Source of the DNA: Candidatus Omnitrophota bacterium
GTDB lineage: Bacteria > Omnitrophota > Gorgyraeia > Gorgyraeales > Gorgyraeaceae
DNA length: 64,000 nucleotides
Direction: 5' to 3'
Assembly: GCA_043814965.1 (NCBI GenBank)
Contig: JBDRJN010000002.1
Span: 39,984 to 103,983 of the forward strand
Shown here: positions 2,294-36,359 of the stretch, piece after piece
Position numbering within the stretch: the stretch's first letter is position 1
How the letters are laid out: every line of letters begins with the position of its first letter
Notes under the pieces: generated by a model
What the model was told of the DNA's origin: nothing
The model's input: the letters and a program-made list of their open reading frames with translations, nothing else
The model's database searches: none
Program-made: the position numbers and the translations under genes

Positions 2294-2869
2294 ATGAAAG
2301 AAGAAGATCAAAAACAAAGAATAAAGGACATAAAAGAGATATCCATCGCGATAGATACGTGGGATGATATCTTCTCGGATTTTGACCCAAGGCCTATGAA
2401 CGAGAGGGCATTGTCAGAGGATTTTAAGTCAGAGATAGCAAAAAGATATAGGGAGACCAGGAAGGGAGATTTTTTAGTCACTATATTTGCCCCAAATTCT
2501 TTAAATGACGGAAAATCCGAGAAGATCGTCATCCAGAGGCTTAAGAGGCATTTCAAGCACAAGGCGATGCAGAGTAAGAAAGAGATCTATGGTATAAGGA
2601 TCAGGGGAGTCTTTTTTGTGATAACCGGGATAATGTTCCTGGGTTTCTTGACGCTCGCAACATACCGCAAGCTTTTTAGAGATTTTACTATAGACATGCT
2701 AGGTATAATACTTTTGCCTCTGGGCTGGTTCGGGGTGTGGGAAGGTTTTTCAAAGATAGTAGATACGTCCATTTCTTTTATACAGGATCAAACCTTGTAC
2801 GATAAGCTCTCCAAAGCAAATTATAGATTTAAATATATAGAGGATGCTCCTAAAAAAGATGCTGTTTAA
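2294..2869 (+). CDS. Hypothetical membrane protein (2 TM helices in the C-terminal half)
   Basis: ORF with hydrophobic segments VFFVITGIMFLGFLTLA and MLGIILLPLGWFGVW. No recognisable family. Confidence 0.5.
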   Translation: MKEEDQKQRIKDIKEISIAIDTWDDIFSDFDPRPMNERALSEDFKSEIAKRYRETRKGDFLVTIFAPNSLNDGKSEKIVIQRLKRHFKHKAMQSKKEIYGIRIRGVFFVITGIMFLGFLTLATYRKLFRDFTIDMLGIILLPLGWFGVWEGFSKIVDTSISFIQDQTLYDKLSKANYRFKYIEDAPKKDAV

Positions 2870-3401
2870 AGAGCTTATATCTAACCGCAGGACACTCAGG
2901 AAATATTCCTCGGAAACTGTTCCGAGAGAAATCATAGACAGATGCCTTGACGCAGCGCGTCTTGCGCCTTCTGCCTGCAACAGCCAGCCATGGTATTTTG
3001 TAGTCATAGATGACGAGGGCTTAAGGAAGCGTGTTGGAGAGGCTGCCTTTTCAGGCGTATATTCTATGAATAGTTTTGCAAGGTCTGCGCCTATATTAAT
3101 AATAGTAGTGAGAGACTGCACAAAATATATAACAAAGCTTGGAGGATTCTTGAGGAAAGTTAATTTTAGCCTTATTGACATAGGTATCTCCTGCCAGAAT
3201 CTTGTTATGCAAGGAGAAGAAGAATCGCTCGGCAGCTGTTACCTGGGGTGGTTTGATGAAAAAAGAGTAAAAGGTATTTTAAATATCCCGAAAAATAAAA
3301 AAATAGACCTAATGATAAGCCTCGGTTACCCTGAAAAAGAAGAAAGGCCCATCAAAGAAAAGCTCCCTCTCGATAAAATAAGGTCCTTTAATAAAATCTA
3401 G
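2844..3401 (+). CDS. Nitroreductase-family flavoprotein
   Basis: RCLDAARLAPSACNSQPWYFVVI is nitroreductase-like, and the C-terminal GYP..E motif fits. The true start may be ATG 2859. Overlaps the upstream ORF. Confidence 0.8.
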   Translation: MLLKKMLFKELISNRRTLRKYSSETVPREIIDRCLDAARLAPSACNSQPWYFVVIDDEGLRKRVGEAAFSGVYSMNSFARSAPILIIVVRDCTKYITKLGGFLRKVNFSLIDIGISCQNLVMQGEEESLGSCYLGWFDEKRVKGILNIPKNKKIDLMISLGYPEKEERPIKEKLPLDKIRSFNKI

Positions 3402-3461
3402 ATCTTACTATATTATAAAGAGCAATAACGAAAACATTTTCGATGTGGATTGGGCACAGTC

Positions 3462-3633
3462 TTTTTTTATTGGTGAGAGTGCCTAGCAAAAAGCCTTTTT
3501 GTTTTGCGAAACACATAGATAATGCACTACAATTTAGATTGCCTGTCAAAACAAAACGGAGCGAAGCCCAACTTTACAAAACACTGATTCTGGCGCAGCG
3601 TCTTTTTGAAAGGCACTCTCACCAATAAAAAAA
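3462..3633. repeat. Structured repeat element, copy A (candidate ncRNA; see copy B at 59221-59340)
   Basis: A 23-bp perfect outer stem (3462-3484 pairs with 3611-3633) encloses a conserved core AAAAAGCCTTTTTGTTTTGCGAAAC..TGCCTGTCAAAACAAAACG. The inner ttttgtttt/aaaacaaaa stem shows compensatory changes in copy B. It lies between convergent genes. Confidence 0.5.
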
Positions 3634-6643: not shown

Positions 6644-6722
6644 AAAACCCCCTTGTTAGGTCAATGAATTCATTATTTATGGTAGGGAAGGTTTAGACCT
6701 CCCCTACCATAGTTATAGATCG

Positions 6723-7991: not shown

Positions 7992-8365
7992 GTCATATTA
8001 TGTTATCATGATAGAATTTTAAAGGCAAGATTTAAGTCTCACAAAAGCATAGATCATTATAACCATAGCAAGACTTCCCTATAAGCTCAGGTGAAATTTT
8101 TCCCGAGTCCCGAAGTCTCTAGACTCGGGGCCGTCTTTTAAGGAGGTATTTTATATAGGGCTAAAAAAACTCGTCGCTAATATATATAGCAGGCTCAGAC
8201 AGTTTTTAGCCTATATTTAAAAGCTAAAATACTATTAATGAAAGACTAAACTTTCAATTTGCTTATATGGAAGCCTTACTATGGTTTATGGGTTTATTGC
8301 ATGTTTTTGGCTGAGCGTCTTTTTGAAGAGCTTCTGTCAGTCAAGAACAATAAGCAGCATAATTA

Positions 8366-10395: not shown

Positions 10396-11468
10396 AATTC
10401 AATAAGATTGTAATCTATGTTACCCAGGCCTATTTTGTGCGCGTATTCAAAGATCTTTTTATATGAGTTTCCCGGGCGTTCTTTTAGTATCACGTCACCA
10501 GCTTTATTCATGATATCTATAGTTGCTTTGTCCATGCTTAATATGTCGCGCGAGGCGATTATGCCTATATCATCCGATATCATGGGCTCATCCTTAGTGG
10601 ATATACAGTCGCATTCTTTGGTTATATCGAATGCAAAATTTATAAATAGCTTGTTTTTGAACTTTGATAGTATGAACTTTGCTACATCAACAGTCCTTTT
10701 GATAAATATATCGACATCCTCGTGCCAGTTTACGCCTATTGCATCGAATTTGCAGGCGCAGAGGCATTCTCCACAGCCAACGCATATAGATCTATCTATA
10801 GCAGCCTTAGAGGTGTCTTTGTCCGAAGTTATTGCGTTTACTGGGCATATTTTTATGCATAAGCCGCAGGCAGTACACTTTTTTTGTATCACCTGTGGTT
10901 TTAGCGAAGAATGCTGGATCTGTTTTGTGGATTTCGAGGACATGCCCATAGCGACATTTTTGATACCAGCTGCAAATCCAGAGAGTATGTGACTAGTGAC
11001 ATGGGAAAGGACTACAACGCTATCGACCATGCCTATAAAAGATGGGATCTTGACCTTTTTTATGTATTCCGAGTCTATGTCATAGGTCGATCCATCCTGG
11101 CCAAAGAGGCCGTCAGCTATTATAAATGGGGCGCCTATCCTGGAATGTGAAAATCTTTTATTTAAGGCCAGTGTCAAGTGGTCTACTGCATTAAGGCGGG
11201 AGCCCTTATATATGACATTTGTATCAAATAAGAATGGTTTTGCTTTTTTATCTTTTATGTCCGATATGACCAGTTTTACGAGCTCCGGGTCGACGTGATA
11301 TACGCATTCGCTGTCGCCTATAGTGATCTTTACAGGCACGAATTCGTCCTTTTTGTAGGCTATCTCAGGGCCTAATGCCTCTAGTAGTTTTAAAAGACAA
11401 TTCCTGCGTGACTGTAAGTCCTTGCCGTTAGATCTAACAAAATAAACCTTGCTTTTCATAGTAGTCAT
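10392..11468 (-). CDS. DUF362-domain protein with a C-terminal 2x[4Fe-4S] ferredoxin domain
   Basis: Two CxxCxxCxxxCP motifs (CTACGLCIKICPVNAI and CVGCGECLCACKFDAI). The N-terminal 200 aa are DUF362-like. Confidence 0.7.
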   Translation of the reverse strand: MTTMKSKVYFVRSNGKDLQSRRNCLLKLLEALGPEIAYKKDEFVPVKITIGDSECVYHVDPELVKLVISDIKDKKAKPFLFDTNVIYKGSRLNAVDHLTLALNKRFSHSRIGAPFIIADGLFGQDGSTYDIDSEYIKKVKIPSFIGMVDSVVVLSHVTSHILSGFAAGIKNVAMGMSSKSTKQIQHSSLKPQVIQKKCTACGLCIKICPVNAITSDKDTSKAAIDRSICVGCGECLCACKFDAIGVNWHEDVDIFIKRTVDVAKFILSKFKNKLFINFAFDITKECDCISTKDEPMISDDIGIIASRDILSMDKATIDIMNKAGDVILKERPGNSYKKIFEYAHKIGLGNIDYNLIEL

Positions 11469-11569
11469 TTTATTCCTATCGTGTTCTTAACTGGAGAGGC
11501 TTTTCAAAAAGACGTTCGGCCTATATTGTAATTTGTAAATGTGGGCCTCACCAGTGTTTATATATACTA

Positions 11570-11595
11570 GTAGGGGAGCTTTAAAGCTCCCCTAC
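11570..11595. repeat. REP-like perfect palindromic hairpin GTAGGGGAGCTTTAAAGCTCCCCTAC (copy 1 of the family)
   Basis: 26-nt perfect palindrome. It sits in a 130-bp element also seen at 16881-16995. A second 9-bp hairpin lies at 11639-11661. Confidence 0.6.
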
Positions 11596-11713
11596 TAAAG
11601 AAAAGGTTTAGGCGAGAGCGAAAAAGAAAATAGAGTAACCCTGCACCATACTGGTGCAGGGCACGCTGGTGAAATTTAACGTTCTCGAAAACAGCGCTTG
11701 CCCGCAGACAAGG

Positions 11714-15365: not shown

Positions 15366-15391
15366 GTAGGGGAGCTTTAAAGCTCCCCTAC
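15366..15391. repeat. REP-like palindromic hairpin GTAGGGGAGCTTTAAAGCTCCCCTAC (copy 2)
   Basis: Identical 26-nt palindrome, in the divergent intergenic region between the HD-GYP and pyruvate kinase genes. Confidence 0.6.
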
Positions 15392-15467: not shown

Positions 15468-16478
15468 ATGGTAAAGACAAAGATCATCTGTACTCTTGGC
15501 CCAGCTAGCTCAAATGAGACAATTATAAGAAAAATGACGCTTTCCGGCATGGATGTAGCGAGGCTTAATTGCTCGCATGGGACATCTAAGAGCCAGGTAT
15601 CCAATATTGAGCTTGTAAGGAAGGTAAATAAAAAGTATAAAAGGGCTGTAAAGGTCCTTTTGGACCTCGAAGGCCCGAGGATAAGGATAGGGGACCTTAA
15701 GGATAAAAAACCCATATTACTTAAAAAAAGAGAGAGGTTCTATCTCTCAAAAAATAAAATTCACTCGGGAAATGTCATACCTTTTGACTATAAAGGCCCT
15801 CTTGATAGCATTAAAAAGGCGGAGTTTATCTATATTGATGACGGTAATATCATATTAAGAGTAAGATCTATTGATAAAAATAACGTAAAAGTAGAAGTGG
15901 TGATCGGCGGCATCTTAAAAGAGCATAAGGGTGTAAATATCCCCGGCGCAAGACTCGAGTTCCCTGTAATAAGCGAAAAAGATAAGCTGGATATTGAATT
16001 TGGAAATTCTTTTTTTGTCGACTATATTGCCCAGTCTTTTGTAAGAAATAAATTAGATGTATTGGAGCTTAAAAAAAGGATAAATTCTAAATCCGGGCCT
16101 CTAGTGATATCCAAGATAGAAAACCAGGATGGAGTAAAAAATATCGATTCGATCATAGATGAATCCGACGGCATAATGATAGCAAGGGGCGATATGGGAG
16201 TATCCCTACCTATATATAAAGTCCCGATCATACAAAAAGAGATCATTAAAAAGTGTAATAAGAAAAAAAAGTTTGTCATCACTGCTACACAGATGCTTGA
16301 GAGCATGACAGAGCATCTCCGCCCGACGAGGGCAGAAGTGACTGACGTTGCAAATGCGATAATAGACGGCACTGATTTTGTGATGCTATCAGGCGAAACA
16401 GCTATCGGCAAATACCCGGTAGAGTCAGTAAAAATGATGAATGATATCATCAAATTCACAGAGAAGCCTATCAAGTAG
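15468..16478 (+). CDS. pyk: Pyruvate kinase (barrel domains only; C-terminal alpha/beta domain absent)
   Basis: [25 protein letters not shown] is a PK signature. SD AAGGAG at 15451. The ORF ends after about 336 aa, where the C-terminal domain normally begins. Confidence 0.8.
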
Positions 16479-16880
16479 TTAAATATTTTTATAAACTAAA
16501 AAAGAGCCTTGTCCGCTCATGTGAAAATTTCCTTTCGTTCTGAGATTTCAAGACTCGAGGTCGCCTTTTATTCCTCATTTTGTCGGGGCTCGAAAAACTT
16601 GCCACCACAAAATCTGGCATGGTGGCTTCGGACAGTTTCGAGCCTTTTAAAAACCGACAAAATGTTTTATAAAAGGCTAAATTTTCAAATTCGCTTACAA
16701 GCCTCTTTTTTAGTTTATAACTGTGTTAGTTTATTTAATGGATTTGTCGATTTTAGTGCCTGAGTAGGCCTAAGAAAAGCCTTGTTTTTTTGAGCGGGCC
16801 CCGTACCAAATTTATTATACTTAATGTAACTGGTATAAATTTTGATACGGGGCGGGCATGGTTCGCCCTCGCATCTACTG

Positions 16881-16906
16881 GTAGGGGAGCCTTAAGGCTC
16901 CCCTAC
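16881..16906. repeat. REP-like palindromic hairpin GTAGGGGAGCCTTAAGGCTCCCCTAC (copy 3, compensatory variant)
   Basis: The palindrome is preserved with ctttaaag changed to ccttaagg. It is followed by AGGCGAGAGCGAAAAA..CTCGAAAACAGC, as in copy 1. Confidence 0.6.
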
Positions 16907-17101
16907 CTTAGACAAAGTTCAGGCGAGAGCGAAAAAAACGAGAGTAAAATTTCCACGCTGAGAAAATTTTACGTCCTCGAAAACAGCTCCCACAGATAGA
17001 TAAAAATGATCTTCCATTAGGATTTGTATTTACAAACATATATTATTTGTTATAATGGCACTTTGATGAACACAATATATTAAATTGAAAGGAGTCTTGC
17101 G

Positions 17102-18076
17102 ATGAGTGTTTCTTACAAAGAATTAGGACTGGTAAATACACGAGAGATGTTTAAAAAAGCAATGGCTGGCAAGTATGCTATTCCTGCATATAACTTCAAC
17201 AATATGGAGCAGTTACAAGCGATAATCACTGCCTGTATAGAGAGTAGATCACCTGTTATCTTACAAGTATCATCCGGCGCCAGAAAATACGCCAACCAGA
17301 TACTCTTAAGGCACATGGCAAAAGGCGCTATTGAGATAATAAAAGACTCTGGAAGCAATATTCCTGTTACGCTTCATCTAGACCATGGTGATACATATGA
17401 GCTATGCGTATCCTGCATAGAGAGCGGGTTTTCCAGTGTCATGATAGACGGCTCAAGCCACACATTTGAAGATAATATCAAACTGACAAAAAAGGTAGTT
17501 GAATACGCCCATAAATATGACGTGACAGTAGAGGGTGAGCTTGGCGTGTTAGCAGGCATAGAGGATGAAGTAAGCCATGAACAGTCTCACTATACCCACC
17601 CTGAAGAAGTAGAAGAATTTGTCAAAAAAACCGGTGTGGACAGCCTTGCGATATCTATCGGTACAAGCCATGGCGCTTATAAATTTAAATTAGCGCCAGG
17701 AGAGAGTGTGCCGGAATTACGTTTTGATATATTGCATGAAGTTGAGAAAAAACTTCCTGGTTTTCCAATAGTCTTGCATGGAGCAAGTTCTGTGCCAAAA
17801 GAATATGTGGATATCATCAATAAGTATGGCGGAAAAATGGAAAATACTGCAGGCGTGCCTGAAGATCAGCTCCGTAAAGCTACTCAATCAGCAGTATGTA
17901 AGATCAACATTGACTCAGACGGCCGCTTAGTAGTAACTGCAAAGATAAGGGAAGTATTCGCCAACTCTCCAAAAGAGTTTGACCCTCGTAAATACCTGGG
18001 CCCGGCAAGGACAGAACTTGTAAAGATGTATAAGCACAAGAATGAACATGTGCTTGGAAGCGCTGGAAAGGCGTAA
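17102..18076 (+). CDS. fba: Fructose-bisphosphate aldolase, class II
   Basis: N-terminal KYAIPAYNFNNMEQ and the LHLDHG motif. 324 aa. SD GGAG precedes the start. Confidence 0.85.
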   Translation: MSVSYKELGLVNTREMFKKAMAGKYAIPAYNFNNMEQLQAIITACIESRSPVILQVSSGARKYANQILLRHMAKGAIEIIKDSGSNIPVTLHLDHGDTYELCVSCIESGFSSVMIDGSSHTFEDNIKLTKKVVEYAHKYDVTVEGELGVLAGIEDEVSHEQSHYTHPEEVEEFVKKTGVDSLAISIGTSHGAYKFKLAPGESVPELRFDILHEVEKKLPGFPIVLHGASSVPKEYVDIINKYGGKMENTAGVPEDQLRKATQSAVCKINIDSDGRLVVTAKIREVFANSPKEFDPRKYLGPARTELVKMYKHKNEHVLGSAGKA

Positions 18077-18546: not shown

Positions 18547-21500
18547 ATGACACACTTTAAAAAACATTTAATTAAAAACCCCATCTCCAAGAAAGTCAAA
18601 GTTTATGGCTTTAAGCTTATGACTTTACTTATAGCATCTATATTTTTCTTAAATAATATAGCTTATGGGATGGATCTGTCTGGTACAGCCCACCTAAGAG
18701 GTAACTCTCCATTTGATAAGATAAATGAAAAAGAAGATAAAGACAGGGTCAATGAACTACTTAAAGCAGTCCAGGATGCATCTGAAAAGAAAAAAGAAAA
18801 CAAGGAAGACTCGAGAGGGCCATCTATTTCCTCGACAGGCGTAGGCGATGAACACCAGGCAAATAGAAATATCCTGGAGGGCATACTCAGCACTGCTTTA
18901 AGACAGGGAAAGATCGATCCTAAAGAAAAAGAAAGAAGATTAAAAGAGTTTGATGACTTTGGGAAAGCCTTATCAGATGATATCGACCTAGAAGTAGACA
19001 ATAAAAACGTATTTTTAATAAATGGGCAAAAGCTTATTGTTGTGGATGGAGTAGATGTTTTATCAACTACAGAAGAAGGGGAACAGTATGCTTCAGCAGG
19101 CCTTAGGAGAGGGGCAGTATATATTACGAGGAATAAGTTTAATGAATGGGTGCTTGCAGGTACGCTTATGCAGAAGATACGACACGAGCAGGATGAAGTC
19201 AGTCATTTATTAAAACAAGCTGAAAATATGGGCCTATCGAGCGAGGAATTGAGCGAATATCTGAAAGACCCTCGCAATAAAGCTTCTGCCAAAAACATGA
19301 TCCAGGATGCGCATAAATTTGCTGAAGAGAATGAAAGATTAAGCGCATTGCTTAGCGAGGCCTCAGAAGATGAGGCCAGGCAGTCCTTTAAAGATAAGTT
19401 TCTTGATATGTTTAGAGGAAGATCCAAGCTATTGCAGGCACAAAGAGAGAATGCTTTAGTCAGAGAGAATGGAAGGGAAGTAAAGGTGTTTAGAGATAAT
19501 AGCCTTACACAAGAGTTTGCAGATTTTACAAAATCTCTAAAACTTCAAAAAGTCAGAGTTGTAGAAGAAAGCAATAATGGAAAAAATAAGATATATGCTG
19601 TAGATGATGTTAACGATAATAGATTTTTAGTATTTGAAGAAGAAGGCCATGTTTACATGATAGCAGTAAAAGCTGCTACTTTGTCTACGGGAGAGTTTTT
19701 TATAGAGACAAAAGATGAGCAAGTGTTACAAGGTTTTAAGAAAGCATGGGATGGGTTTGGAAGCAGAAAGACTGGAAGATTCGACGAGCATAAATTTTTA
19801 TATGCGTCAGCATTTTCAAAGAGCGGGATAGAAGTTTTGTTGAATAAGGTAGCAGGCAACCCTATTTTACGCAATTTATTTGCTCTGATAATAGAAAGAT
19901 CTGATGAGCTGCGCTTAGCGGGCGGGTTCTTTCTGAGTGATAGACAAGACGCAGGCGGATTTTACATGCCATATTTGAAATTGATCTTGTGGAGAGCTAA
20001 GCATAGCATTCCTAGCGCAGGGCTTATAGGGCATGAAGCAATGCATCATCTATTTAGTGAAGATGGAGAAATCTATAAAAAATTCCATAAGTATATAGAA
20101 GAGAACCATGAAAAGCTTCTAAAAGAGCTAAGGCATAGCCCATTATATTCTTATTTATCCGAAAAGAACCTTATCGATGAAGTGATCGCGTATTTAATGG
20201 ATGGCATAGCAGATGGCCGCGTAGAAATATTTCAATTTGGTAGATTGAAATACGGAGATCTGAAGATGTTTAAACAAATAATCCCGTCACTTGAAGAATA
20301 TTTTCCAGAAGAACTTCTCTTGCGCTTTTCCGATGAAGATATTATACGCGGGAGATTTTTTGATCTGCTTAAAGAATTATATAAGATAAGATCTGAGAAC
20401 AAGGGAATGGATTTAAAAGACGCTCTTAGTGAATGCGCCAAGAGGGAATATGGAAAAGAAGCGCCATCTCATGAGACATTATTGATAGTGGCAGATTTTT
20501 TCAAAGAAGCAGGTGATCTTAAAAGAGCAGAAAATATATACAAAAGATTATTAGATAGTTCTGAAGTTGATATGGCAACAAAAGCGATCATACGATTAGG
20601 TTTGATAGACCTGTATGTAAAAGAAGGAGATGTGCCAGAAGCAGGTAAATTGTTTGAGGTTTCAAAGGAAGAACTTACAGATGCAGGGTTTACAGAAGAT
20701 CTAATTGATAAAGCTTTTTCAATGGTCATATATCCGTCCGAGGTTTTGGCTATTTTGCTTTCAGTGACAGATGCGGAAACCATAAGAGACATATTTTCTC
20801 ATACTATAAAGGCAATAGAGAGTAAGATCGTAAAGGTAAAAGAAAAACTACAGCCCACCACAGTTCAATTTGAAATTGGAGGCCGTACAATAGAATGGGA
20901 TAGAGAATTTGTCAACCCTTACGATGTTAATATTACAGATGAAAAAACGATAAGGGACAGTGTGACATCTGGCCTAATAAAGAAAAGGAAAGATCATGAT
21001 GAATTATTGAGTTTATTAAATAAATCCGCGTTTTTATATTATTTATCAGGAGATAATGAGAAATATGAGTCTACTTTAAAAGAAGTAGAAAAGACTGAGC
21101 AAGAGATTTTAATGTTGGAAGAAAAGATCGAAAGAAGGTTAGAAGAAGACAGAGAGGCCTCCGTAAACGAAAGTTTAGAAAAGAAAAAATCTGAAAATGA
21201 ATTTTGGGATAATTTACCTAATACAGATTGGCTTAGAGATATGAAGATAGAGGATTTCCAGCTAATATATGGTGAACTTGGTAAAGTTGAGCCAGTAAAT
21301 AACCAGGTAGCCGATATAGTACCTATATTTGGCTATATAGAAGACCTATCATCTCAAGAAGATATCAAGGCCCCTGAAGCAAGTGCTTTATTGTTAGAAG
21401 TCGAACAGTTTGATTATAGCGCTGGTATTGAGCTAGTAGAGTATGACCCAGAACTTATAAAGAATATGACCTTATTACACAAAAGAAACCACTCGTCATT

Positions 21501-24500
21501 ATTTAGATGGGTATTATCAGCTATCAAAAATATTATCGGAGATAAGAGTTTAGGTGAAAAAGACAAAAAATATTATATGAAGTTTGTTTTTGATATCCTG
21601 AAGACTTATCTTAAAAATACGATCTTAAAAGATAGATTAAGCAGTGCGTTCAGGGAAAGATTAGAATCATTAGGCCTAAGCAGTGATGCAATAGGCTCTA
21701 TTATAGAACGCGGGGCTTTATCTATAGAAGATGGGCAGGTAAGAGGCAACATGGATATATTGAAGTTAATAGCAGAGATAGAAGGAGTCAAAGTAGGTGA
21801 TGTCTTAAGAAGGAGCTTGTTCCACGAAAGAGCGCACGATATCCTTGAGCTTTTATTAAAAGAAGATAAAAAAGATGTGCTTAAGGATGTAAAAGATGGC
21901 CTTGGCAGTGACTATTATCTGGTAAAAGCTATTATGGAAGAAGAGTTCGGCGAGTTTGAAAGTGAACAGGAATTTTTAGAGGAATTAGTCGTCAAGTACT
22001 ATACGTACAGATTTTCCGGCAGTGATACTTCTATTTTTGAAAAAAGCGAGATGCTAAAAGTAGCTAGCGTTATAGATTCTTTAATGCCGGATGGCCTAAA
22101 GGAGCTATTTACTATAAAAGGAGAAAACACACAACATGCGCAGTCCGAGAAGTTGAAAGAGCTTTCCAGGGAATCCAAAAGATTAGGCGGAAAACTCGAG
22201 ATAGAATTTGAAGAAGGTGAAGCTATAAAAGAACTTTCTGATGAGATAAAAAATGTTATAGCTAGTATAAATATGACTCAAAGCGCACAAGACCCTGAAG
22301 AAGCTGTATCAATTAATGAAACTGTGTTAGGGCTAGGAGCTAAGATGGTGACTTTGCGAGATATAGATTTAGAAGAGATAAATAGGCTTAGGAGATCAAA
22401 TATAGACAAGTTTGTTATTGAAAGAAAACCAGGCCTAGAGCCAATAATAAATAGCGATACAAGAGATCAGCAGAATTGGCCATATACATATTCTGACCTA
22501 AATATCGTTGATTCCAATTTTGGCATAGATATATTTGATATGATAGAGAAAAAATCAGATTCCGAACCAGATAAGACTTTTACTGTAGTGGATTGGGGGT
22601 GTGGCGCAGGCATAGCCTTGAATGATATAGCAAAGAAGTTAAAAGAAAAAGGCATAAACAATGTAAGATTAATTGGTTTTGCTGATCAATATCATTCTGC
22701 GTGGGAGAAGGCTGACGAGAGTATAACCTTTATTTTAGACGAAGCCAAAGCGCTGCCCAAATATCGTGACGTATTAAAAAGCCCATATTTAATTTATAGT
22801 TTTATGGGCCTAAGGCACTTAATAGGAAAGAATATTGATGATCACTCTGATTATAGCGACTATATAATGGAGTTAACCGATAATTTATCCAAAGACGGGA
22901 AAATAATCACTGAATATGATAGATCTAAATATGAAAGGGTATATGAACATATAAAATCAGATTTAGCCTCCAAAGGGATCGAGTTCGAACAAGTAATAAA
23001 TCCAGTAAGAGGCTCTGCTATGATCATATCCAAAGAAGATCCAAATAAACAGCCTGCCTCAAGTGGAAAAATAGAAGAGCCGATGATCAGGTTTATTCCA
23101 GGTATAGTGGATATGGTAGATCTGGGAATTTTATTCAAGAAATATAAAGGAAACCTTTTTTATAGAGTTTCTGACGAAGGAGATACTAAAAAGGCAGTCG
23201 TATTTTCTCACGATAAGAACAAGAATGAAATAGTACGCGGTGAATGGCAGCTTGTAAATAGATTTGACCTTAATATATGGGAGCCAGTGTATATTCCCAG
23301 CTCTACAGCTTCATACGGAGAAAAGAAAGCATATGAATTTATAACTAAATTCGATGAGCTTATATATAAGATAGAACCTTTGAATTTTTTATTCCCAGAT
23401 ATAAATCTTAGGGATATCAGAAACCAGTCGATTTATCTAAGAGATATCGCTAGGAACCACAAAACTGAGCAGCAATTATTAAAGGTACTATCCAAGGCAA
23501 AAGATGCGATAGAGGACAAGGTGATAAAGCTGGCATTGAAGGACAGCAGTAAGTTTGACATCTCAAGACAGAATAGGATCAAAGAACGCCTAAAATCCAC
23601 AAAGTCAGATTTTAAAGGATTATACAATATCTTGTCTGACATAGAAAAGAATCTCAATAAAAAAGGCACAAAGACTAATATAGTAGGAAAATTGACTTTG
23701 TTCGCAGCAGGTGTTTTGAGTTCATTAGGCACTATGGAGGCAAGTGATATCTCAGGTCAAGATTTATCCCAGGTAAAAGACCCAGCACCCATAGTGCAGT
23801 ACGTAGATAATGCGCCAAATGCTATAGATCTATTAGAACAAGATCCTAAAGATTTAGCGCTTCAGGATGAGAGGTTTATTATAGACGTAGGAGGTATTGA
23901 GTTTGACCTTACTGGTAAAGCAATGCGGGAGGTGTTGGATGACGGGACTACCGTAGCTACAGTCCTGGAGTATATAAATATTAAAGATGGGAATTTTGAT
24001 ATAGGGACCCATAAAGACGTATTTATCTTCCATCCAAATGACAAGATAATAATATCTCCTGCGAAACCCGGCATACCCAGCATTATAACTTTGAATACTT
24101 CATGGGAGGTCACGCCTCCTTCTTTCGTTGATCTCGGCACTCTATACATTAAGGGTTCTGAAGAATATAAGACTATACTTACTTTGGTAACATATGGCAT
24201 GGGTAGTCTCGATGAAAACGATATCCCTGCATTTAATAATGGACGTATGACAGAGTTTGACATGGCGCCATATGAGTTATCAGGAAGCTTAATATTATAT
24301 CCCGCGTATGGCTCTTATGGTACTGGCCGCAATTCATCTACGGGGGAACTCGTAGGATTTATATTTATAGATAATAAAACCAAAGAAATATTGATGATAG
24401 ATAGAGAGAACTATAGTTTTAATGAACTTAAAATGTTATATGAAGCGACATATAAAGGAGTGACGAATATTGATGAATTTGAGACTGCTACAAACAGTCT

Positions 24501-27500
24501 TATAAAAAGAGGAGGTAGTATTTATAATGAATTACGCAGCGCCCGTTCCTATATATTGGACGCGGTTACTAATGATAAGGAATTTAAATTAGAACTTTTA
24601 GATGGATCAGGCAATAAGACAGGAGAATTCGTAATTTTTAATAAAGGAACAAGGATAGATATGAATACGATGATGCCTAAAGACGGCTCAAAGGGCCTTC
24701 TGAATGGAGATAGTTCTAAACCCGTAAGATATATGAAAGGTGATATCATAACCGAAGAAGAATATCAAAAAGACATGTTTTATGATGATGAGAACCAGGG
24801 TATGCTAGATCTGCAAAATACCTCGTTTTCCTTGAAACAGCCTGATCTGGCAGGGCTAAAGACTACCCATGATACAAAATCACGAGTTCTGTTAGAAAGC
24901 ATATTTGACAGTAGGAAAGTAGACCTTGGTAGATATGCGGTAGATGAGCCTGTAACCGAAGGGACAGGCGTGAATCTATACTGGGTCAAAGACACTCAAT
25001 CTGAACTAGAATTCTTTGTTTTGTGTGTAGACAGTAGGGGAAGCATTATTTTAATAGCTGAAGGTATGGAAGGCTATGATGAACTACTTTCTCCTTACAT
25101 TTCAAATGATATCGAACGCCTTAAAAACAAGATGGTTGAGATAATAAGCCGCGGTATAGATAATCCATATGGCATAGGAGACGTCATCCTCTTTGATAAA
25201 AATAATATTTCAGTAAGGCTCAATAATGGACAGGTGATAGACTATAAGTTTAGGTCAGAAGAAATAGACAATCCTGATGGAACAATAAGCTTGGTATATA
25301 TAGGTGATAAGCCTGTAAATGTAGGCAATCAGACCTTCGAGAAAGGCGACAAGATAGTCTTGGAATGGAGCGATGATAAGTACGGAAAGAGTGACACAGG
25401 ATTTATCATTAAAGAGATCGTAAAAGGAGAATTATATAAAGATATCATTGATACCCAGGATAAAAAAAGCGAGGAAAGCAAGATAGGTGATAAAGAAGTC
25501 CATTCTCTCATAGCTGTACTAAGAGCAGGTGATTATAATAAGATAATCTGGGCCAAAAAAATGTTGCTGCAAATGGGAGATATAGCAGTAGATCAGCTTA
25601 TTGAAGCGTTGAGCGATAGTTCAATAAAATCCAACGTTCTTAGTTCAATTATAGATATATTGGGAAATGTCGGTGATCCAAAGGCAATACAGCCATTATT
25701 GATTTCTATTGAGAAACAGTCTAATTATTTTGGTGCCTATTTGGCTGCAAAAGCAGTATTCAAGATCGATGAAGAAAAACTTTCTACAATATTCCAGGCC
25801 TTGGCAAATAGGGCTAAGGTTAAAGGCAATAGCTGGAGAAGCTATCTACTATTTGCAAATAGTCTAAATATGGGATTATCCGACCATCAAAAAGAACGTT
25901 ATAGTGTTTTCTATAATGGATTACAAGCTGGAATACAGGAAGGAGTTCTATGTATTCATGAAGCAGGTATGGACAATAATCAGATCGAGGATGTAGGAAT
26001 TCGTAGGGTATTTTCGAACATAGATGAAGTAAAGGAATGGATTAATAGAGATTATGAATTGGGTTTTCAATATTATCCTCCTTTTGACGAAATGTCAAAT
26101 ATGTTATCGCCAGATTTTATATTACAGATCAGTAATGGAAAAATTTCCATGGTTTATCATACAGATGTAAAACTTAGACAGATAGTTGGTGAAAAAGAAG
26201 TAGAAGAAGAGCTACGAAATATTGGCTTTATTGGTGGTTCTGGAATTATAGCAGTAGAGAAGGGAGGCGATATCGGGAATAATAGCCTATATCTAAGAGT
26301 TTTTAATAGTGTACATTCACATAGCCATCCTAAAAAATATGAATCGCATATCGTAGTTCCATCCGAGACAGATCTGAATTGTTATAAAGGTGAAATTGAT
26401 AAACGTAACGAGTTAGAGTTAGAAGATCAAAAAAAGGATCCTTCAAAGGCTGATACTTTGGCTGAATCAACTTATGTCTATACTAAAATATTGGGATTTG
26501 GGTACAAAGATAATGAAGCTGAGCGTATTACAAAAATGATCTCAGATTTTTATATGGAAAACAATATAAGTGTTTTAGAAAACTTACCAGAGTTGGAACA
26601 GATCAAAGGGCTCAAGGATATATTATCAGGTAATCTTGAGATAGAATTCGGACTTCCAACGAATTTAGAAGAAGTATTTACTGGAAGAAAGGCAAATTGT
26701 TATGGCAGCAGCCAACTGTTTAAGATATTAGGGGAAATGATAGGTTTGGATATAACTCCGTTAGAGATAATAGTGTCCAATGATAAACAACTGCATCTTT
26801 CTAGCCATGGAGCCTTATTAGTTAATTTAAGTAATGGCACTTCAGTAATTGTGGATATGGCTTTGCCTAGTATGGGTGAAAATGGCATTAGTGATGCTTT
26901 TTCTATAAATATGCAATACAAGAAAGAAGGGAACTATCTTATATTGAATGATAATGTCAACCCTTTAAATCTATACTATAAATTTAGAATAGGAGATATC
27001 GGGTTGATTAATTCATGGGTTATCTTATCGAATGTGCATTATCCCGATTCTTATACTATTCCGGATGTAGATAGTAATAATGTTAAGATAATAGAGAAAG
27101 CTATAGAGAAAGATCCTCTGTACATACGCTCATATTTTGGTCTAGCAAACGCGTATTGCACAAATATATTATACGCCAATGTTTATTCTGAAGATGATAT
27201 TATCAAATGGGTAAAAGATAATCCTGAAAATATAGAAAAGGCGTTGAAATTGATGGATAAGGCCTTAGGATTGGACCCTAAAAATGAACAGGGCCTATTG
27301 TACAAAAATAGACTAGAAGAATTGTTGGAAAAAGCAGAAAGCAGAGGAAGTCTTGAAGTTATTCCAAATTCCGACTCCGGCTCATTGATGCCTGAGTCAA
27401 GCATGCAGCCTCACAGATTAGAACTTTTAGATGGGACTGGCAATAAGACAGGAGAATTCGTTATTTTTAATAAGGGGACAAGGGTAAAACCTAGCACGAT

Positions 27501-29982
27501 GACACCCGAAGACGGCTCCAGGGGTTTCTTAAATGGCAATAGCTCAAAACCTGTTAGATATATGAATGGTAAGATAATAACCGAAGAGGAATATCAAAAA
27601 GATATGTTCTATGATGGCGGTAAAGATCAGGGCATGATAGATTGGAATAATATACCTTCTAATATATCTCCCAAGGTTCCTTTTACTATCTCTAGTATTA
27701 ATAGTTATGATTTTAAGCTAAATGGAGCATTAGATAGAAATAACGTGGCAAGTATCTTACCGGAAGGCCTTAGCGTAATCCCGTATTATACCGGAGGAGG
27801 TGTCTTACCTATTGGATTGACAGTAGGCTATGAGAATTTATTCGGGAATAATATGATAGGAGGAGGGTTTAATACTATAGGGCTGAACTTAAGAGAGTTC
27901 GAAGCTAAATACGGATATATGTTAGATAAAGATGAATATTTAGCTGGTTCAATCAAGCTGTTTGGGAAAGGTTACCATCCTCTTTTGGATAACACATTGA
28001 TAGCAAAGTTTCAGTATGCAGGCGGAAGACATCAATTAACAGCTGGATATGCAAACTTTCTTGCGCAGTTCGCTAATAAAAATATGAAAAATAGCTCTAC
28101 AAACCTGATATTTTCTAACTATATATATGATTATGACAAAAATATCAATGAAGGATTTGATTATTATTTAAATATAAATTTGAATGGGGGCTGGAACTCT
28201 GCAAATTCTGAAACATGGGAGTCTTTTTTGGGGTTGTTTGACGAAGGATTTTTAGCTTATAGTAGATTTTTAGGCAAGGCAAAATACGCATTATCCATAG
28301 ATGACCATTTTAATGCCTATGGCGAGAGCGTATTGGAACTTGGGGCCAGAACAGAGCTTAATAATATTTTGATGTTAAAATGGCGCTTGTCCCCGTCTAC
28401 AAAATTGTCAGGAGGGCTTCAAACCAGGCATAATCTAGACCTATGGTCTAGTGTCGCGCTTAGAGAAATTTATGGTTCTACAGAAGTTTTATTACCGTTT
28501 ATAATAGATTTAGAGCTTTACGGAAACTATCTGGAAGTAAAGGGCAATTATTACCCTAAGACTAATTTTTTAGGATTTGAACTTACACTTAGGACAGATT
28601 ATATATGGATAAAGGCATTTAAAGAATCTTATTTGTCAGATGTCCCAAGGTATGGCATAGGGCTTTCGGTTCCTTTGGGCAGGGATAAAGAAAGATATAT
28701 GCCAGATTTTTACCAGTTTGATAATAGAGATGTTTTTATAACTGATTCTATCGTGCAGATGCCTGAAAACATCTTAGCTTCTTTCGAAGAATATCCAGCA
28801 GAAGTTGTCCCGCAAGACCCTGCTTTTTATGAGGAGCTTAAAAAGAGATTAGTGGAGTCAGGCCTACTACGTCCGGAAATTCCCATAGAAGAGATAAAGT
28901 ACCATTATATACTGGAGCTAAAGGCATCAAGAGACATATTTGGCCTGACATCTGCAGAAGTAGTAAATAATTTTAGGAAATATAATTGGGGACTTAATGA
29001 ACTTTTATATCTTGGGAAGTCATTAGAGTGGGATTATCATGAAAGTATTTTTACTACTCCTCAAGAGACCTGGAGCAAAGAACCAAGTGTGTGCAGGGAC
29101 CATTCAGCTTTTCTTGCATTAATCATGAGAGATGGCATGGGATTGAGCACTGCAAGGGCGTATAATCTTATTGGTATGTATGGTTTTGCGCATGTAGTAG
29201 CAGTAGCTGTGGGAGAAAATGGGCATGGCAGAGAAGGATATGTTATGGTAGTTGATAAGGATAAGATCTATCTGCCAGGTGAGAATGGTTTTCCAGCAAT
29301 AAAATATGAGAATGAGGGCTCTTTTGTAAGGGCGTTGAGCTATATATATCCCAATGCTATTACTACACAGGGAGGAGATACATTTTTTGGAAAGATATTA
29401 AGAGATAATATAGAGAAGCCGATATTTGATATTAAAAGTAATAAAAATAATCCTTCACTGGAGGAAGAAGAATTAGAACAAGATGGGGTAAAAGAAGAAC
29501 AGAGAGATGATAAAGAAATAGAAAAACAGGAAGATAAAGAACAAGATAGTGATGGTTCTTTGATGATGCCTATACCATTGGTCCCTGTAGGAAAGAGAAA
29601 TAACAACACTTTTACTGATATACCCAAAAGATCTACGGCTAATAGTATGAGCCAGATCGAAGCTGTATTCGCAGATACTATCATAGGTAATGAAGAAAAA
29701 TTCGAAGACTGGCTGCGTGATAAGCGTAATGCAGGGCACCAGGTAGTGATAATATCAGAACCCGAAGATTTTAAGAATATAGAAAAATATAAAGAAATAG
29801 CCTATATAAAGGTTCTCGGGGAAGACATAAAGGATGAAAGTTATATAAATAAACTAAGGGAGTTAAGAGTATTATGTGAATTTAAGCCATTTAGTGGTTT
29901 TAATTTTGATGATCTACTGCAGGTAGAGTCGAATCTCGACCAATATAAAGAAGTCCTGGTATCAGTAGCAGGGGATATGTAA
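18547..29982 (+). CDS. Giant secreted/surface multidomain protein (3811 aa): HExxH x2, SAM-methyltransferase motif, HEAT/TPR, beta-rich aromatic region, transglutaminase-like core
   Basis: Uninterrupted 11.4 kb ORF with an N-terminal signal-like segment (LMTLLIASIFFLNNIAYG). HEAMHH at about 20032 and HERAHD at about 21823. VVDWGCGAGIAL at about 22590. CRDHSAFLALIMR..GFAHVV at about 29090. Own promoter and terminator. Confidence 0.85.
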   Translation: MTHFKKHLIKNPISKKVKVYGFKLMTLLIASIFFLNNIAYGMDLSGTAHLRGNSPFDKINEKEDKDRVNELLKAVQDASEKKKENKEDSRGPSISSTGVGDEHQANRNILEGILSTALRQGKIDPKEKERRLKEFDDFGKALSDDIDLEVDNKNVFLINGQKLIVVDGVDVLSTTEEGEQYASAGLRRGAVYITRNKFNEWVLAGTLMQKIRHEQDEVSHLLKQAENMGLSSEELSEYLKDPRNKASAKNMIQDAHKFAEENERLSALLSEASEDEARQSFKDKFLDMFRGRSKLLQAQRENALVRENGREVKVFRDNSLTQEFADFTKSLKLQKVRVVEESNNGKNKIYAVDDVNDNRFLVFEEEGHVYMIAVKAATLSTGEFFIETKDEQVLQGFKKAWDGFGSRKTGRFDEHKFLYASAFSKSGIEVLLNKVAGNPILRNLFALIIERSDELRLAGGFFLSDRQDAGGFYMPYLKLILWRAKHSIPSAGLIGHEAMHHLFSEDGEIYKKFHKYIEENHEKLLKELRHSPLYSYLSEKNLIDEVIAYLMDGIADGRVEIFQFGRLKYGDLKMFKQIIPSLEEYFPEELLLRFSDEDIIRGRFFDLLKELYKIRSENKGMDLKDALSECAKREYGKEAPSHETLLIVADFFKEAGDLKRAENIYKRLLDSSEVDMATKAIIRLGLIDLYVKEGDVPEAGKLFEVSKEELTDAGFTEDLIDKAFSMVIYPSEVLAILLSVTDAETIRDIFSHTIKAIESKIVKVKEKLQPTTVQFEIGGRTIEWDREFVNPYDVNITDEKTIRDSVTSGLIKKRKDHDELLSLLNKSAFLYYLSGDNEKYESTLKEVEKTEQEILMLEEKIERRLEEDREASVNESLEKKKSENEFWDNLPNTDWLRDMKIEDFQLIYGELGKVEPVNNQVADIVPIFGYIEDLSSQEDIKAPEASALLLEVEQFDYSAGIELVEYDPELIKNMTLLHKRNHSSLFRWVLSAIKNIIGDKSLGEKDKKYYMKFVFDILKTYLKNTILKDRLSSAFRERLESLGLSSDAIGSIIERGALSIEDGQVRGNMDILKLIAEIEGVKVGDVLRRSLFHERAHDILELLLKEDKKDVLKDVKDGLGSDYYLVKAIMEEEFGEFESEQEFLEELVVKYYTYRFSGSDTSIFEKSEMLKVASVIDSLMPDGLKELFTIKGENTQHAQSEKLKELSRESKRLGGKLEIEFEEGEAIKELSDEIKNVIASINMTQSAQDPEEAVSINETVLGLGAKMVTLRDIDLEEINRLRRSNIDKFVIERKPGLEPIINSDTRDQQNWPYTYSDLNIVDSNFGIDIFDMIEKKSDSEPDKTFTVVDWGCGAGIALNDIAKKLKEKGINNVRLIGFADQYHSAWEKADESITFILDEAKALPKYRDVLKSPYLIYSFMGLRHLIGKNIDDHSDYSDYIMELTDNLSKDGKIITEYDRSKYERVYEHIKSDLASKGIEFEQVINPVRGSAMIISKEDPNKQPASSGKIEEPMIRFIPGIVDMVDLGILFKKYKGNLFYRVSDEGDTKKAVVFSHDKNKNEIVRGEWQLVNRFDLNIWEPVYIPSSTASYGEKKAYEFITKFDELIYKIEPLNFLFPDINLRDIRNQSIYLRDIARNHKTEQQLLKVLSKAKDAIEDKVIKLALKDSSKFDISRQNRIKERLKSTKSDFKGLYNILSDIEKNLNKKGTKTNIVGKLTLFAAGVLSSLGTMEASDISGQDLSQVKDPAPIVQYVDNAPNAIDLLEQDPKDLALQDERFIIDVGGIEFDLTGKAMREVLDDGTTVATVLEYINIKDGNFDIGTHKDVFIFHPNDKIIISPAKPGIPSIITLNTSWEVTPPSFVDLGTLYIKGSEEYKTILTLVTYGMGSLDENDIPAFNNGRMTEFDMAPYELSGSLILYPAYGSYGTGRNSSTGELVGFIFIDNKTKEILMIDRENYSFNELKMLYEATYKGVTNIDEFETATNSLIKRGGSIYNELRSARSYILDAVTNDKEFKLELLDGSGNKTGEFVIFNKGTRIDMNTMMPKDGSKGLLNGDSSKPVRYMKGDIITEEEYQKDMFYDDENQGMLDLQNTSFSLKQPDLAGLKTTHDTKSRVLLESIFDSRKVDLGRYAVDEPVTEGTGVNLYWVKDTQSELEFFVLCVDSRGSIILIAEGMEGYDELLSPYISNDIERLKNKMVEIISRGIDNPYGIGDVILFDKNNISVRLNNGQVIDYKFRSEEIDNPDGTISLVYIGDKPVNVGNQTFEKGDKIVLEWSDDKYGKSDTGFIIKEIVKGELYKDIIDTQDKKSEESKIGDKEVHSLIAVLRAGDYNKIIWAKKMLLQMGDIAVDQLIEALSDSSIKSNVLSSIIDILGNVGDPKAIQPLLISIEKQSNYFGAYLAAKAVFKIDEEKLSTIFQALANRAKVKGNSWRSYLLFANSLNMGLSDHQKERYSVFYNGLQAGIQEGVLCIHEAGMDNNQIEDVGIRRVFSNIDEVKEWINRDYELGFQYYPPFDEMSNMLSPDFILQISNGKISMVYHTDVKLRQIVGEKEVEEELRNIGFIGGSGIIAVEKGGDIGNNSLYLRVFNSVHSHSHPKKYESHIVVPSETDLNCYKGEIDKRNELELEDQKKDPSKADTLAESTYVYTKILGFGYKDNEAERITKMISDFYMENNISVLENLPELEQIKGLKDILSGNLEIEFGLPTNLEEVFTGRKANCYGSSQLFKILGEMIGLDITPLEIIVSNDKQLHLSSHGALLVNLSNGTSVIVDMALPSMGENGISDAFSINMQYKKEGNYLILNDNVNPLNLYYKFRIGDIGLINSWVILSNVHYPDSYTIPDVDSNNVKIIEKAIEKDPLYIRSYFGLANAYCTNILYANVYSEDDIIKWVKDNPENIEKALKLMDKALGLDPKNEQGLLYKNRLEELLEKAESRGSLEVIPNSDSGSLMPESSMQPHRLELLDGTGNKTGEFVIFNKGTRVKPSTMTPEDGSRGFLNGNSSKPVRYMNGKIITEEEYQKDMFYDGGKDQGMIDWNNIPSNISPKVPFTISSINSYDFKLNGALDRNNVASILPEGLSVIPYYTGGGVLPIGLTVGYENLFGNNMIGGGFNTIGLNLREFEAKYGYMLDKDEYLAGSIKLFGKGYHPLLDNTLIAKFQYAGGRHQLTAGYANFLAQFANKNMKNSSTNLIFSNYIYDYDKNINEGFDYYLNINLNGGWNSANSETWESFLGLFDEGFLAYSRFLGKAKYALSIDDHFNAYGESVLELGARTELNNILMLKWRLSPSTKLSGGLQTRHNLDLWSSVALREIYGSTEVLLPFIIDLELYGNYLEVKGNYYPKTNFLGFELTLRTDYIWIKAFKESYLSDVPRYGIGLSVPLGRDKERYMPDFYQFDNRDVFITDSIVQMPENILASFEEYPAEVVPQDPAFYEELKKRLVESGLLRPEIPIEEIKYHYILELKASRDIFGLTSAEVVNNFRKYNWGLNELLYLGKSLEWDYHESIFTTPQETWSKEPSVCRDHSAFLALIMRDGMGLSTARAYNLIGMYGFAHVVAVAVGENGHGREGYVMVVDKDKIYLPGENGFPAIKYENEGSFVRALSYIYPNAITTQGGDTFFGKILRDNIEKPIFDIKSNKNNPSLEEEELEQDGVKEEQRDDKEIEKQEDKEQDSDGSLMMPIPLVPVGKRNNNTFTDIPKRSTANSMSQIEAVFADTIIGNEEKFEDWLRDKRNAGHQVVIISEPEDFKNIEKYKEIAYIKVLGEDIKDESYINKLRELRVLCEFKPFSGFNFDDLLQVESNLDQYKEVLVSVAGDM

Positions 29983-31578: not shown

Positions 31579-31646
31579 GTAGGTGACACTTAAGGGTCAC
31601 CTACCGACTCGCATAAACCAGTAGGGGAGCCTTAAGGCTCCCCTAC
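31579..31646. repeat. Tandem pair of REP-like hairpins (copies 4a and 4b)
   Basis: GTAGGTGACACTTAAGGGTCACCTAC (31579-31604) and GTAGGGGAGCCTTAAGGCTCCCCTAC (31621-31646). Both start 7 nt after the radical SAM stop, with conserved GTAGG..CTTAAG..CCTAC ends. Confidence 0.6.
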
Positions 31647-36250: not shown

Positions 36251-36359
36251 TCGGGAAACAGTTTAGACAAGGTTGTATTTTTAAGGATTATAGGGTAAAC
36301 TTCTTCTATTAAACGTGTTATATGCTATATTTATCTTATTATAATATATAGAAAGGGTT

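Follow-up and report, generated by a model that had tools for sequence, protein, structure and literature searches.

The pyk–fba spacer and its counterpart in relatives

The DNA analysed here (the window) is a 64 000 nt stretch from a Candidatus Omnitrophota bacterium (GenBank assembly GCA_043814965.1, contig JBDRJN010000002.1, positions 39 984 to 103 983), and our subject is the non-coding spacer of 623 bp at window positions 16479–17101, which separates pyk from fba. The left neighbour, pyk (15468–16478, plus strand; Pfam PF00224, 1.7e-110), encodes a protein of 336 aa that consists of the barrel domain only and is without the C-terminal PK_C domain. The right neighbour, fba (17102–18076, plus strand; PF01116, 5.7e-99), encodes a class II aldolase and is preceded by a ribosome-binding site (RBS), GAAAGGAG, at 17087–17094. 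The spacer is best read as a lineage-specific mosaic of hairpin-forming repeat modules that belong to Omnitrophota families, and these as a new family of small mobile elements, rather than as a regulatory region of pyk or fba.

Seven pyk loci from relatives, which have four distinct spacers between them (L001, L002–L004, L005 and L007; loci from other genomes are designated by L numbers), were compared with the window. The pyk protein of the window is 100 % identical to one from a Candidatus Omnitrophota metagenome-assembled genome; those of the next relatives are 70–72 % identical to it and all are of the short, barrel-only type, and the order DUF362, PAS/HD, pyk, fba and an ORF (open reading frame) of 85 aa is retained. 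The orthologous spacers are 51 bp (L001), 28 bp (L002–L004), 45 bp (L005) and 114 bp (L007) long, as against 623 bp here, and the first of the modules described below, module A, was not found in the relatives' pyk loci with an nhmmer profile. What these short spacers do contain is the fba promoter, which is conserved, of sigma-70 type (TTTACAA...TGTTATAAT) and placed either across the pyk stop codon or immediately after it. Its counterpart in the window (TTTACA-16-TATAAT with TG upstream, 17029–17056, plus strand) matches the consensus at 11 of 12 positions and is conserved in the relatives in an alignment. Both the 3′ end of pyk, on the left, and the fba promoter, on the right, align to the single junction of the relatives. 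Hence, because the relatives' spacers are only 28–114 bp long and are essentially just the fba promoter, the alignments indicate that approximately 560 bp, roughly 16481–17047, is inserted here between two diverged copies of the ancestral junction. These two diverged copies are all that was seen at this insert as a possible target duplication.

The pyk stop codon, TAG, directly adjoins the left edge of the insert. That the insert had truncated pyk was considered and rejected. Kinases of this short, barrel-only kind occur throughout the lineage: the 120 best homologues, which all seem to be from Omnitrophota, are 314–380 aa long, and the short pyk is accordingly taken to be characteristic of the lineage and not to have been shortened by the insert. 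In L007, a palindrome of the form GTAGG..TTAA..CCTAC, of the type described below, lies at the very end of pyk (11054–11079), and with it the pyk ORF as called reaches 355 aa and the spacer 114 bp. Because L007 carries this palindrome at the end of pyk, the pyk–fba junction appears to be a repeated insertion target.

Two ORFs had been called in the spacer (16509–16763 and 16790–16999). Neither has a Pfam match, and they span modules whose homologues carry indels that are apparently not multiples of three in the alignments; both are judged on this basis to be spurious, as the original prediction had supposed, and coding potential is rejected. The pyk–fba spacer is the longest truly non-coding spacer of the window. 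Two intervals that figure as spacers in a list of ORFs of at least 100 aa, 40495–41213 and 36251–36622, appear to contain short coding sequences, possibly acyl-carrier-like, and because these intervals are probably coding the pyk–fba spacer would be the longest genuine non-coding stretch. A search of 16400–17200 against Rfam gave no match, including to 6S RNA, with the cut-off relaxed to E ≤ 10, and the spacer yielded neither a tRNA nor a tmRNA. Rfam searches of the window and eight loci, at gathering thresholds and at permissive E-values, returned only generic microRNA-hairpin noise, and 6S RNA was not matched in the other copies of the modules either.

Modules A and E2 and the palindromes

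Module A (16484–16723, plus strand; nhmmer E = 6e-60) is a rod-like hairpin of 232–240 nt. Its outer inverted repeat, with arms of 42 nt that are 86 % complementary (16489–16530 and 16679–16720), closes all of 16489–16720 (232 nt) into a single rod. Inside it, the nested repeats 16563–16586 and 16654–16677 (span 16563–16677) enclose the pair ggctcgaaa/tttcgagcc and an apical hairpin at 16601–16626. The nested inverted repeats on which the original prediction was built are present where it placed them (cattttgtcgg, 16576–16586, with ccgacaaaatg, 16654–16664; ggctcgaaa, 16587–16595, with tttcgagcc, 16636–16644; gccacca, 16601–16607, with tggtggc, 16620–16626), but they are only the inner part of the 232 nt hairpin 16489–16720. 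The minimum free energy of 16489–16720 is −92.1 kcal/mol on the plus strand (z −9.77) and −94.5 kcal/mol on the minus strand (z −9.93), and none of 200 shuffled sequences was as stable.

Ten copies of module A, in nine loci, were identified and all ten were aligned. The second copy in the window (A2; 8054–8292, plus strand; nhmmer E = 2e-38) was found through a weak BLAST hit, is about 66 % identical to the first and is the most diverged of the known copies; its outer stem has a completely different sequence that is nonetheless fully paired, and it is followed at about 8308–8330 by a remnant of the 3′ part of module E2, described below, which contains GGCTGAGCGTCTTTTTGAAGAGC. The copy in L001 lies between a radical-SAM gene and DUF362, in the opposite orientation, with 81 % mean column identity, an extra side hairpin of 20 nt and compensated stem changes. 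A motif scan of species-representative genomes added copies in L009, a metagenome-assembled genome (MAG) labelled Planctomycetia that shares three stretches of 68–70 % DNA identity with window 57.8–60.2 kb, in L010, which is another contig of the L001 relative, and in L011, an Omnitrophota single-cell genome. A scan of JGI metagenomes gave 12 hits, and module A was present in L012, L013, L015 and L023; the other eight hits were set aside as chance AT-rich or coding matches. An nhmmer profile of module A recovered only these ten copies in 357 kb of Omnitrophota DNA. In every case (10 of 10) module A is followed by another module of what appears to be a wider superfamily, either E2, a remnant of E2, a unit designated E3 (L010 and L023) or one designated F (L001). 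A tie between module A and a particular B12/radical-SAM gene was considered and rejected, the neighbours being only 20 % identical.

The sequence of the outer stem varies among the ten copies, as does the apical hairpin, and at two or three positions there is either no hairpin or one whose length differs greatly between copies. Almost no variation is seen in the helices AAAATTT/AAATTTT and GTCGYCTTTTA/TAAAAGRC, and the internal loops are conserved (GCTCAKRTG opposite CAAATTCG, and TTCCGC opposite RCTWCA, or in looser notation TTCCKC / RYTWYA). RNAalifold predicts 65 pairs from the ten copies, 27 of them compensated. In a structure of 71 pairs, 91.5 % of the cells are paired, as against 82.9 % in shuffled alignments, and 28 of the 71 pairs have changed on both sides where 15.1 would be expected; none of 500 shuffles reached either this count or the pairing value. 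When the pairing partners were slid by 1–3 columns, no more than 56 % were paired.

Module E2 (~16788–17000, plus strand; nhmmer E = 2e-40; fold z = −5.5; three alignments) follows module A in the spacer, and the region 3′ of module A in the window is homologous to the region 3′ of module A in L009 and L012. The core runs in the order GAGCGGGC ... (A)GGCGAGAGCG ... a hairpin with the loop CACGCTGRG ... ACGTCC, and it has four conserved parts, namely GAGCGGGCAYGGT, a variable hairpin, GCGAGMGAG, and a hairpin whose loop is CCACGCUGGGG, with GCGUC after it. In the window, hairpin B and a palindrome take up the two variable-hairpin positions. Hairpin B (GCCCCGTACC...GATACGGGGC; 16798–16853) is 56 nt long with 16 nt arms at 88 % and is what the original prediction had described as a 50 bp imperfect hairpin. 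It probably lies within the E2 motif GAGCGGGCAYGGT, flanked on either side by CGGGC, and a hairpin of the same type also follows GAGCGGGC in L013, where an E2-like unit is inverted relative to module A. The 3′ half of the core, AGGCGAGAGCG...CACGCTG...CTCGAAAACAGC (16921–16987, plus strand), is homologous to L009 3640–3701 (83 %) and L012 1995–2042 (84 %).

A module shared by the spacer and the region near 11.6 kb had also been claimed, and this was borne out: AGGCGAGAGCGAAAAA occurs exactly twice in the window (16921 and 11610), as does CTCGAAAACAGC (16976 and 11684), and the stretch common to the spacer and 11610–11695 consists of 77 nt at 82 % and 34 nt at 85 %. It belongs to a partial copy of E2, made up of the palindrome and the 3′ core (11562–11695, plus strand; nhmmer E = 8e-9). 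A diverged full-length copy with its own outer stem, TTCTTGGTAAGC/GCTTACCAAGAA, lies at 51291–51434 on the minus strand. In total the window holds two full and three partial copies, all diverged, and L024 holds two or three in 11 kb; beyond the window the profile found E2 in L009 and L012 and several copies in L024, L025 and L029–L031. The orientation of E2 relative to neighbouring genes is mixed. In L009 and L012, E2 is closed by an outer stem of 23–25 bp (CTTCTGCACCRCCCAGACCAAGG / CCTTGGTCTGGGTGGTGCAGAAG), with z values of −11 to −14 against mononucleotide shuffles. Helices have been swapped wholesale between copies and yet are paired, for example UCUUUUACGC/GCGUAAAAAAAGA versus GCCGUGCC/GGCACGGGGC, and five copies show compensation at four of the ten pairs of the conserved-loop hairpin. 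At 11480–11550 lies the inverted, cut-short beginning of an E2 (GGCTTTTCAAAAAGACGTTCGG; stem CTGGAGAGGC/GCCTCACCAG), and most of the long spacers in the first 17 kb of the window contain pieces of this superfamily.

The palindrome in the second variable-hairpin site of E2, GGTAGGGGAGCCTTAAGGCTCCCCTACC (16880–16907; 28 nt, 14+14, 100 % complementary), had been called REP-like (repetitive extragenic palindromic), which holds: it is short, perfect, extragenic and over-represented, with a GTAG head, and thus has the size, head and extragenic copy number of a REP. A GTAG head is a typical REP feature. The pattern of its 24 nt core occurs four times in the window where 0.00 would be expected, and the looser GTAGG-N6-TTAA-N6-CCTAC occurs six times, all between ORFs, where 0.01 would be expected. 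The further copies are at 11570–11595, 15366–15391, 31579–31604 and 31621–31646, with a degenerate one at 6682–6707, and all are intergenic. L005 and L007 also carry this family (GTAGG..TTAA..CCTAC), and GTAGG...CCTAC is kept in all six window copies and in those of L005 and L007. In other genomes different palindromes stand at this position of E2, and one of them, TTTACATTTAAGGCAAGACCTTAAATGTAAA, is repeated in L002–L004 and L023.

Two further units were noted beside modules A and E2. Copies of F are found at window 3462–3633 and 59222–59339, at L001 2427–2548 and at L029 ~10880–11010; each has its own perfect outer stem of 16–22 bp around a common core of 71 nt (83 % identical between the two window copies) that contains TTGACAGGCA..., and the unit terminates in an E2-like motif, GCGTCTTTTTGAA. 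E3 follows module A in L010 (~3236–3452, minus strand) and L023 (~2612–2790, plus strand), has a long, copy-specific outer stem around the common motifs TTTACAGYGAG ... CGAGCTGTAAACCGTAG, and folds 13–16 kcal/mol better on the strand given. There are at least two repeat families, and possibly four, with folds that are kept by compensatory change across species.

Mobility and the competing explanations

Because the ribE–rmuC junction is filled in L024 and empty in Gorgyraea atricola (L027), with a 17 bp target duplication, comparison of the two indicates that E2 is mobile. The ribE–rmuC spacer is 48 bp long in L027, 307 bp in L024 and L025, and 500 bp in L029–L031. On inspection of the alignment, the flanks in L024 and L027 are about 95 % identical and the difference is an insert of 257 bp that carries E2. 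A perfect direct repeat of 17 bp, AAAAAATACAACTATAT, which is the last codons of ribE, lies on both sides of this insert, and the insert ends in terminal inverted repeats of about 10 bp, GTAATATTTG / CAAATATTAT. A second insert in L024 (5318–5700), in which one E2 lies in the variable-hairpin position of another, inverted E2, has similar inverted ends, GTAATATTTTCACTGTTAC / GTAACTCTTCAAATACTAC, and a direct repeat of about 16 bp (ATCGCAATAATAGATT / ATCGCAATAATATATT); the two L024 copies have the common ends GTAATATTT.. / ..CAAATAYTAY. Elsewhere the ribE–rmuC junction holds different module combinations (L011, L013 and L029, and L024 itself), and the pyk–fba junction that is filled here is empty in L001, L002–L004 and L005. 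Module A lies between the same two flanks but in opposite orientation in L012 (1583–1897) and L015 (1578–1850), which suggests either inversion across the outer inverted repeat or independent insertion. The neighbours of the copies are housekeeping genes; HycI, BFN, ribE, GT9 and radical SAM are found beside homologues of the spacer's structures. The suggestion that the spacer is the scar of a mobile element is supported, and beyond what the word scar conveys: the empty junctions of the relatives, the presence of the modules at unrelated loci and the 17 bp duplication speak for mobility, and the modules are intact and not decayed.

Several searches for related contexts were negative. Neither plasmids nor phages matched the spacer in BLASTN, and the module A motif had no hits in viral contigs; two hits to the E2 motif there were dismissed as chance matches in GC-rich, coding-looking sequence without support from the hidden Markov model. 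A reciprocal empty site, in which the genes flanking A and E2 in L009 would correspond to the window genes at 59384 and 60382, was rejected as the proteins are unrelated.

[quoted passage not shown] Such elements would insert with a long target duplication of about 17 bp, bounded by short terminal inverted repeats, would tend to land beside or inside one another, and might be moved by a transposase acting in trans. The form that matters would be the folded single strand, either as DNA during transposition or replication or as RNA. At the present locus, the insert would supply or abut the stop codon of pyk, a gene that would now stop where the insert begins on the left, and a transcript reading through pyk would meet about 0.5 kb of very stable structure, with outer stems that consist of an A-tract, a GC stem and a U-tract. 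A similar arrangement in REPINs was read by Bertels and Rainey as co-option for termination (PMC3337134). The fba gene would be driven by its own conserved promoter at the right edge of the insert, in one of the two diverged copies of the ancestral junction.

A number of observations weigh against this reading. Module A is low-copy (two copies in 64 kb and none in about 120 kb of the relatives' pyk loci) and its paralogues, at 66 % identity, are old. It follows ribE in both L011 and L013, where the ribE region shares only 67 % DNA identity, and for this reason it seems that module A can persist vertically for a long time. The window insert has no unambiguous terminal inverted repeat or target duplication that could be read, the candidate ends TTTAATGGATTTGTCG / GATCTTCCATTAGG having been read by eye only, and the right-end motif of L024 is not enriched in the window (nine matches, most of them inside long ORFs, against 4.9 expected). 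No transposase, REP-associated tyrosine transposase (RAYT), integrase or reverse transcriptase adjoins any of the copies, and none of the 18 ORFs scanned is a transposase. Finally, conservation within A and E2 is highest in the internal loops and inner helices and not at the termini, which is the opposite of the pattern in a classical MITE. Low copy number, old paralogues, conserved interiors, vertical persistence and the lack of readable termini or an adjacent transposase agree at least as well with functional RNA genes as with selfish DNA, and perhaps better.

The strand signals do not agree with one another. All ten copies of module A fold 5–20 kcal/mol better in the orientation that corresponds to the minus strand of the window, where the apical hairpin has a U-tract after it. 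For E2 and E3 the more stable fold is on the strand opposite to that of the adjacent module A (plus), and this opposition finds no explanation among the readings so far. In the alignment of module A, A–C mismatches are at least as frequent as G–U pairs. Neither A nor E2 was found to have a promoter-like site, nor was a terminator found that is conserved.

That A and E2 are free-standing structured non-coding RNA (ncRNA) genes, representing two new Omnitrophota RNA families scattered by rearrangement or hitch-hiking, is a possibility to which we give some weight while thinking it unlikely. Strong covariation, conserved unpaired motifs and optional hairpins of variable length at fixed positions are the usual signature of functional RNA, and the low copy number with deeply diverged paralogues, the retention of module A 3′ of ribE, the better conservation of the cores than of the presumed transposon ends, and the consistent preference of module A for one orientation all agree with it. 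Against it stand the absence of an Rfam family, promoter or terminator, and the fact that the energetically favoured orientation of A is opposite to that of the adjacent E2 or E3, which suits neither one common transcript nor any evident pair of them. The mixed orientation of E2, its nesting and its target-duplicated insertion polymorphism, and a site that is empty at all seven of the relatives' pyk–fba loci also tell against RNA genes. Of the candidate ncRNA locus that had been proposed for this spacer, the strong covariation thus survives, but there is no Rfam match, promoter of its own, coherent strand signal or positional conservation, and an RNA specific to pyk–fba is contradicted by the relatives' orthologous spacers (28–114 bp), which are without the structures, the outcome that the original prediction had itself named as telling against it. 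A more novel reading, that A and E2, together with E3 and F, form a superfamily of mobile structured elements whose conserved loops and covarying stems are under selection because the folded strand itself has a function, is likewise a tentative one that we would not expect to prevail; the elements would be either ncRNA cargo on miniature transposons or folded single strands moved by an enzyme with a preference for hairpin tips, the staggered cuts of which would be about 17 bp apart.

The constraint might also be illusory. Quasi-palindrome correction via template switching is an established mutational mechanism and could account for part of the maintenance of the stems. Were these modules inert palindromic DNA, kept paired by intrastrand template switching without selection on the fold or present mobility, one would understand why both strands of module A fold equally well by z-score, why A–C mismatches are no rarer than G–U, and why each copy has its own perfect outer stem. 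We regard this as improbable, as template switching cannot explain why unpaired loops and bulges are the best conserved parts across species at about 70 % protein identity, and the target-duplicated insertion polymorphism is apparently recent. Least credible, and to our minds barely worth retaining, is the idea that pyk or fba has here an ancestral region of cis-regulation, whether a leader, an attenuator, a riboswitch or a 6S-like RNA for glycolysis genes. A highly structured sequence between two glycolytic genes invites it, but it is already contradicted by the comparative data: the structures are absent from the junction at all seven relatives' loci, their homologues adjoin the unrelated genes listed above, no Rfam hit (including 6S) was obtained, and the structures end before the promoter and RBS of fba are reached.

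Comparison with known elements and significance

The 26–28 nt palindrome resembles the REPs and BIMEs of Enterobacteria and Pseudomonas in being short, near-perfect, extragenic and over-represented, with a GTAG head (GTAGG..TTAA..CCTAC), and the window modules likewise occur in intergenic mosaic clusters, mostly between co-directional genes. However, the density here is modest (six in 64 kb), and the linker motifs of BIMEs are much shorter and simpler than modules A and E2. In REPINs, which are mobilised by RAYTs, the hairpins persist although the sequence of the spacer changes, and A and T runs are conserved at the flanks (PMC3337134). The modules share with them long imperfect hairpins whose sequence turns over with pairing kept, A-runs and T-runs at the ends, higher-order nested arrangements and apparently long persistence in a lineage (PMC3337134). 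Unlike REPINs, module A is not two inverted REP units and its arms are without the REP palindrome, which is instead a single unit within E2; copy number is low, and E2 has terminal inverted repeats and a 17 bp target duplication. The IS200/IS605-like mechanism proposed for REPINs, to our knowledge, leaves no target duplication.

The structured MITEs, which include the Correia elements of Neisseria, BOX and RUP of pneumococci and ERIC/IRU of enterobacteria, are also non-coding, 150–600 bp long and capable of forming long hairpins, lie between genes and in operons, can be modular in the manner of BOX, and show presence/absence polymorphism with target duplication. Judged from the sequences compared, E2 has several properties of a MITE, namely presence/absence, target duplication and, in one genome (L024), common terminal repeats, although the end motif of L024 is not recognisable in the window. 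Bacterial MITEs have target duplications of 2–14 bp, and one of about 17 bp is unusually long. Nesting at hairpin tips and a conserved, structured interior are also unusual for a MITE, as are stems that covary across species at about 70 % protein identity and termini that are less conserved than the interior loops. We know of no parent insertion sequence (IS) for these modules. Insertion of one element into the hairpin tip of another (E2 in E2, and palindromes at the variable sites) recalls IS1397 and ISKpn1, which insert into palindromic units, but those are autonomous members of the IS3 family with a transposase, whereas the units here are non-coding and the targeting of tips is suggested by a few cases.

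Among structured nucleic acids, 6S RNA (RF00013) and the single-strand promoter and origin hairpins Frpo and ssoA have a comparable rod-like fold of ~200–290 nt with conserved internal loops, and one or two copies per genome region. Module A differs from these in having no covariance-model match and no large central bubble, only small internal loops and side hairpins, and in being found in varied places and orientations, with no plasmid or phage match. An integron attC site was rejected on inspection, the ends of module A not fitting the RYYYAAC / GTTRRRY core sites and the flanks being housekeeping genes in conserved synteny. Retron ncRNAs and IS110- or TnpB-type guide RNAs were also considered; like 6S RNA and attC, they were set aside for want of a model match, of the defining sites or of a partner gene beside any of the copies.

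For annotation, these structures should not be labelled as a regulatory RNA of pyk or fba, or as ORFs. As repeat DNA rather than a glycolytic regulator, the spacer is ordinary; the strong covariation and the long target duplication are what make it worth a specialist's look. The junction illustrates how an insertion can split a tight gene pair and leave the downstream promoter intact. Omnitrophota are an uncultivated phylum, and brief searching of the literature found nothing on Omnitrophota intergenic repeats of this sort; what is novel here is the combination of folds that covary across species, conserved loops, nesting in hairpin tips and a 17 bp target duplication. Together these offer a testable case in which to ask if small bacterial mobile repeats are under selection as folded RNA or as single-stranded DNA, and what enzyme moves them. 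The alignments of A and E2 are usable as seeds for covariance models and a phylum-wide census. Should the reading as a superfamily of mobile structured elements be true, it would add a kind of bacterial mobile element that has not been described, and new RNA families, in a phylum without characterized ncRNAs beyond the universal ones.

Two other features of the window were noted. At 41214–41301, upstream of an ORF of 736 aa (41406–43616), there is a ZMP/ZTP riboswitch (RF01750 in Rfam) that scores 43.6 bits and so exceeds the gathering score, and the relative L007 has a PFL-like gene of the same length as this ORF. Downstream of fba and the 85 aa ORF is an ORF of 3811 aa (18547–29982), the position of which is taken by a radical-SAM/DUF6873 gene in L002, L005 and L007 and by a different large ORF in L001; the region is a further lineage-specific insertion and contains an internal repeat of 200 nt (24588–24787 and 27417–27616, 81 %).

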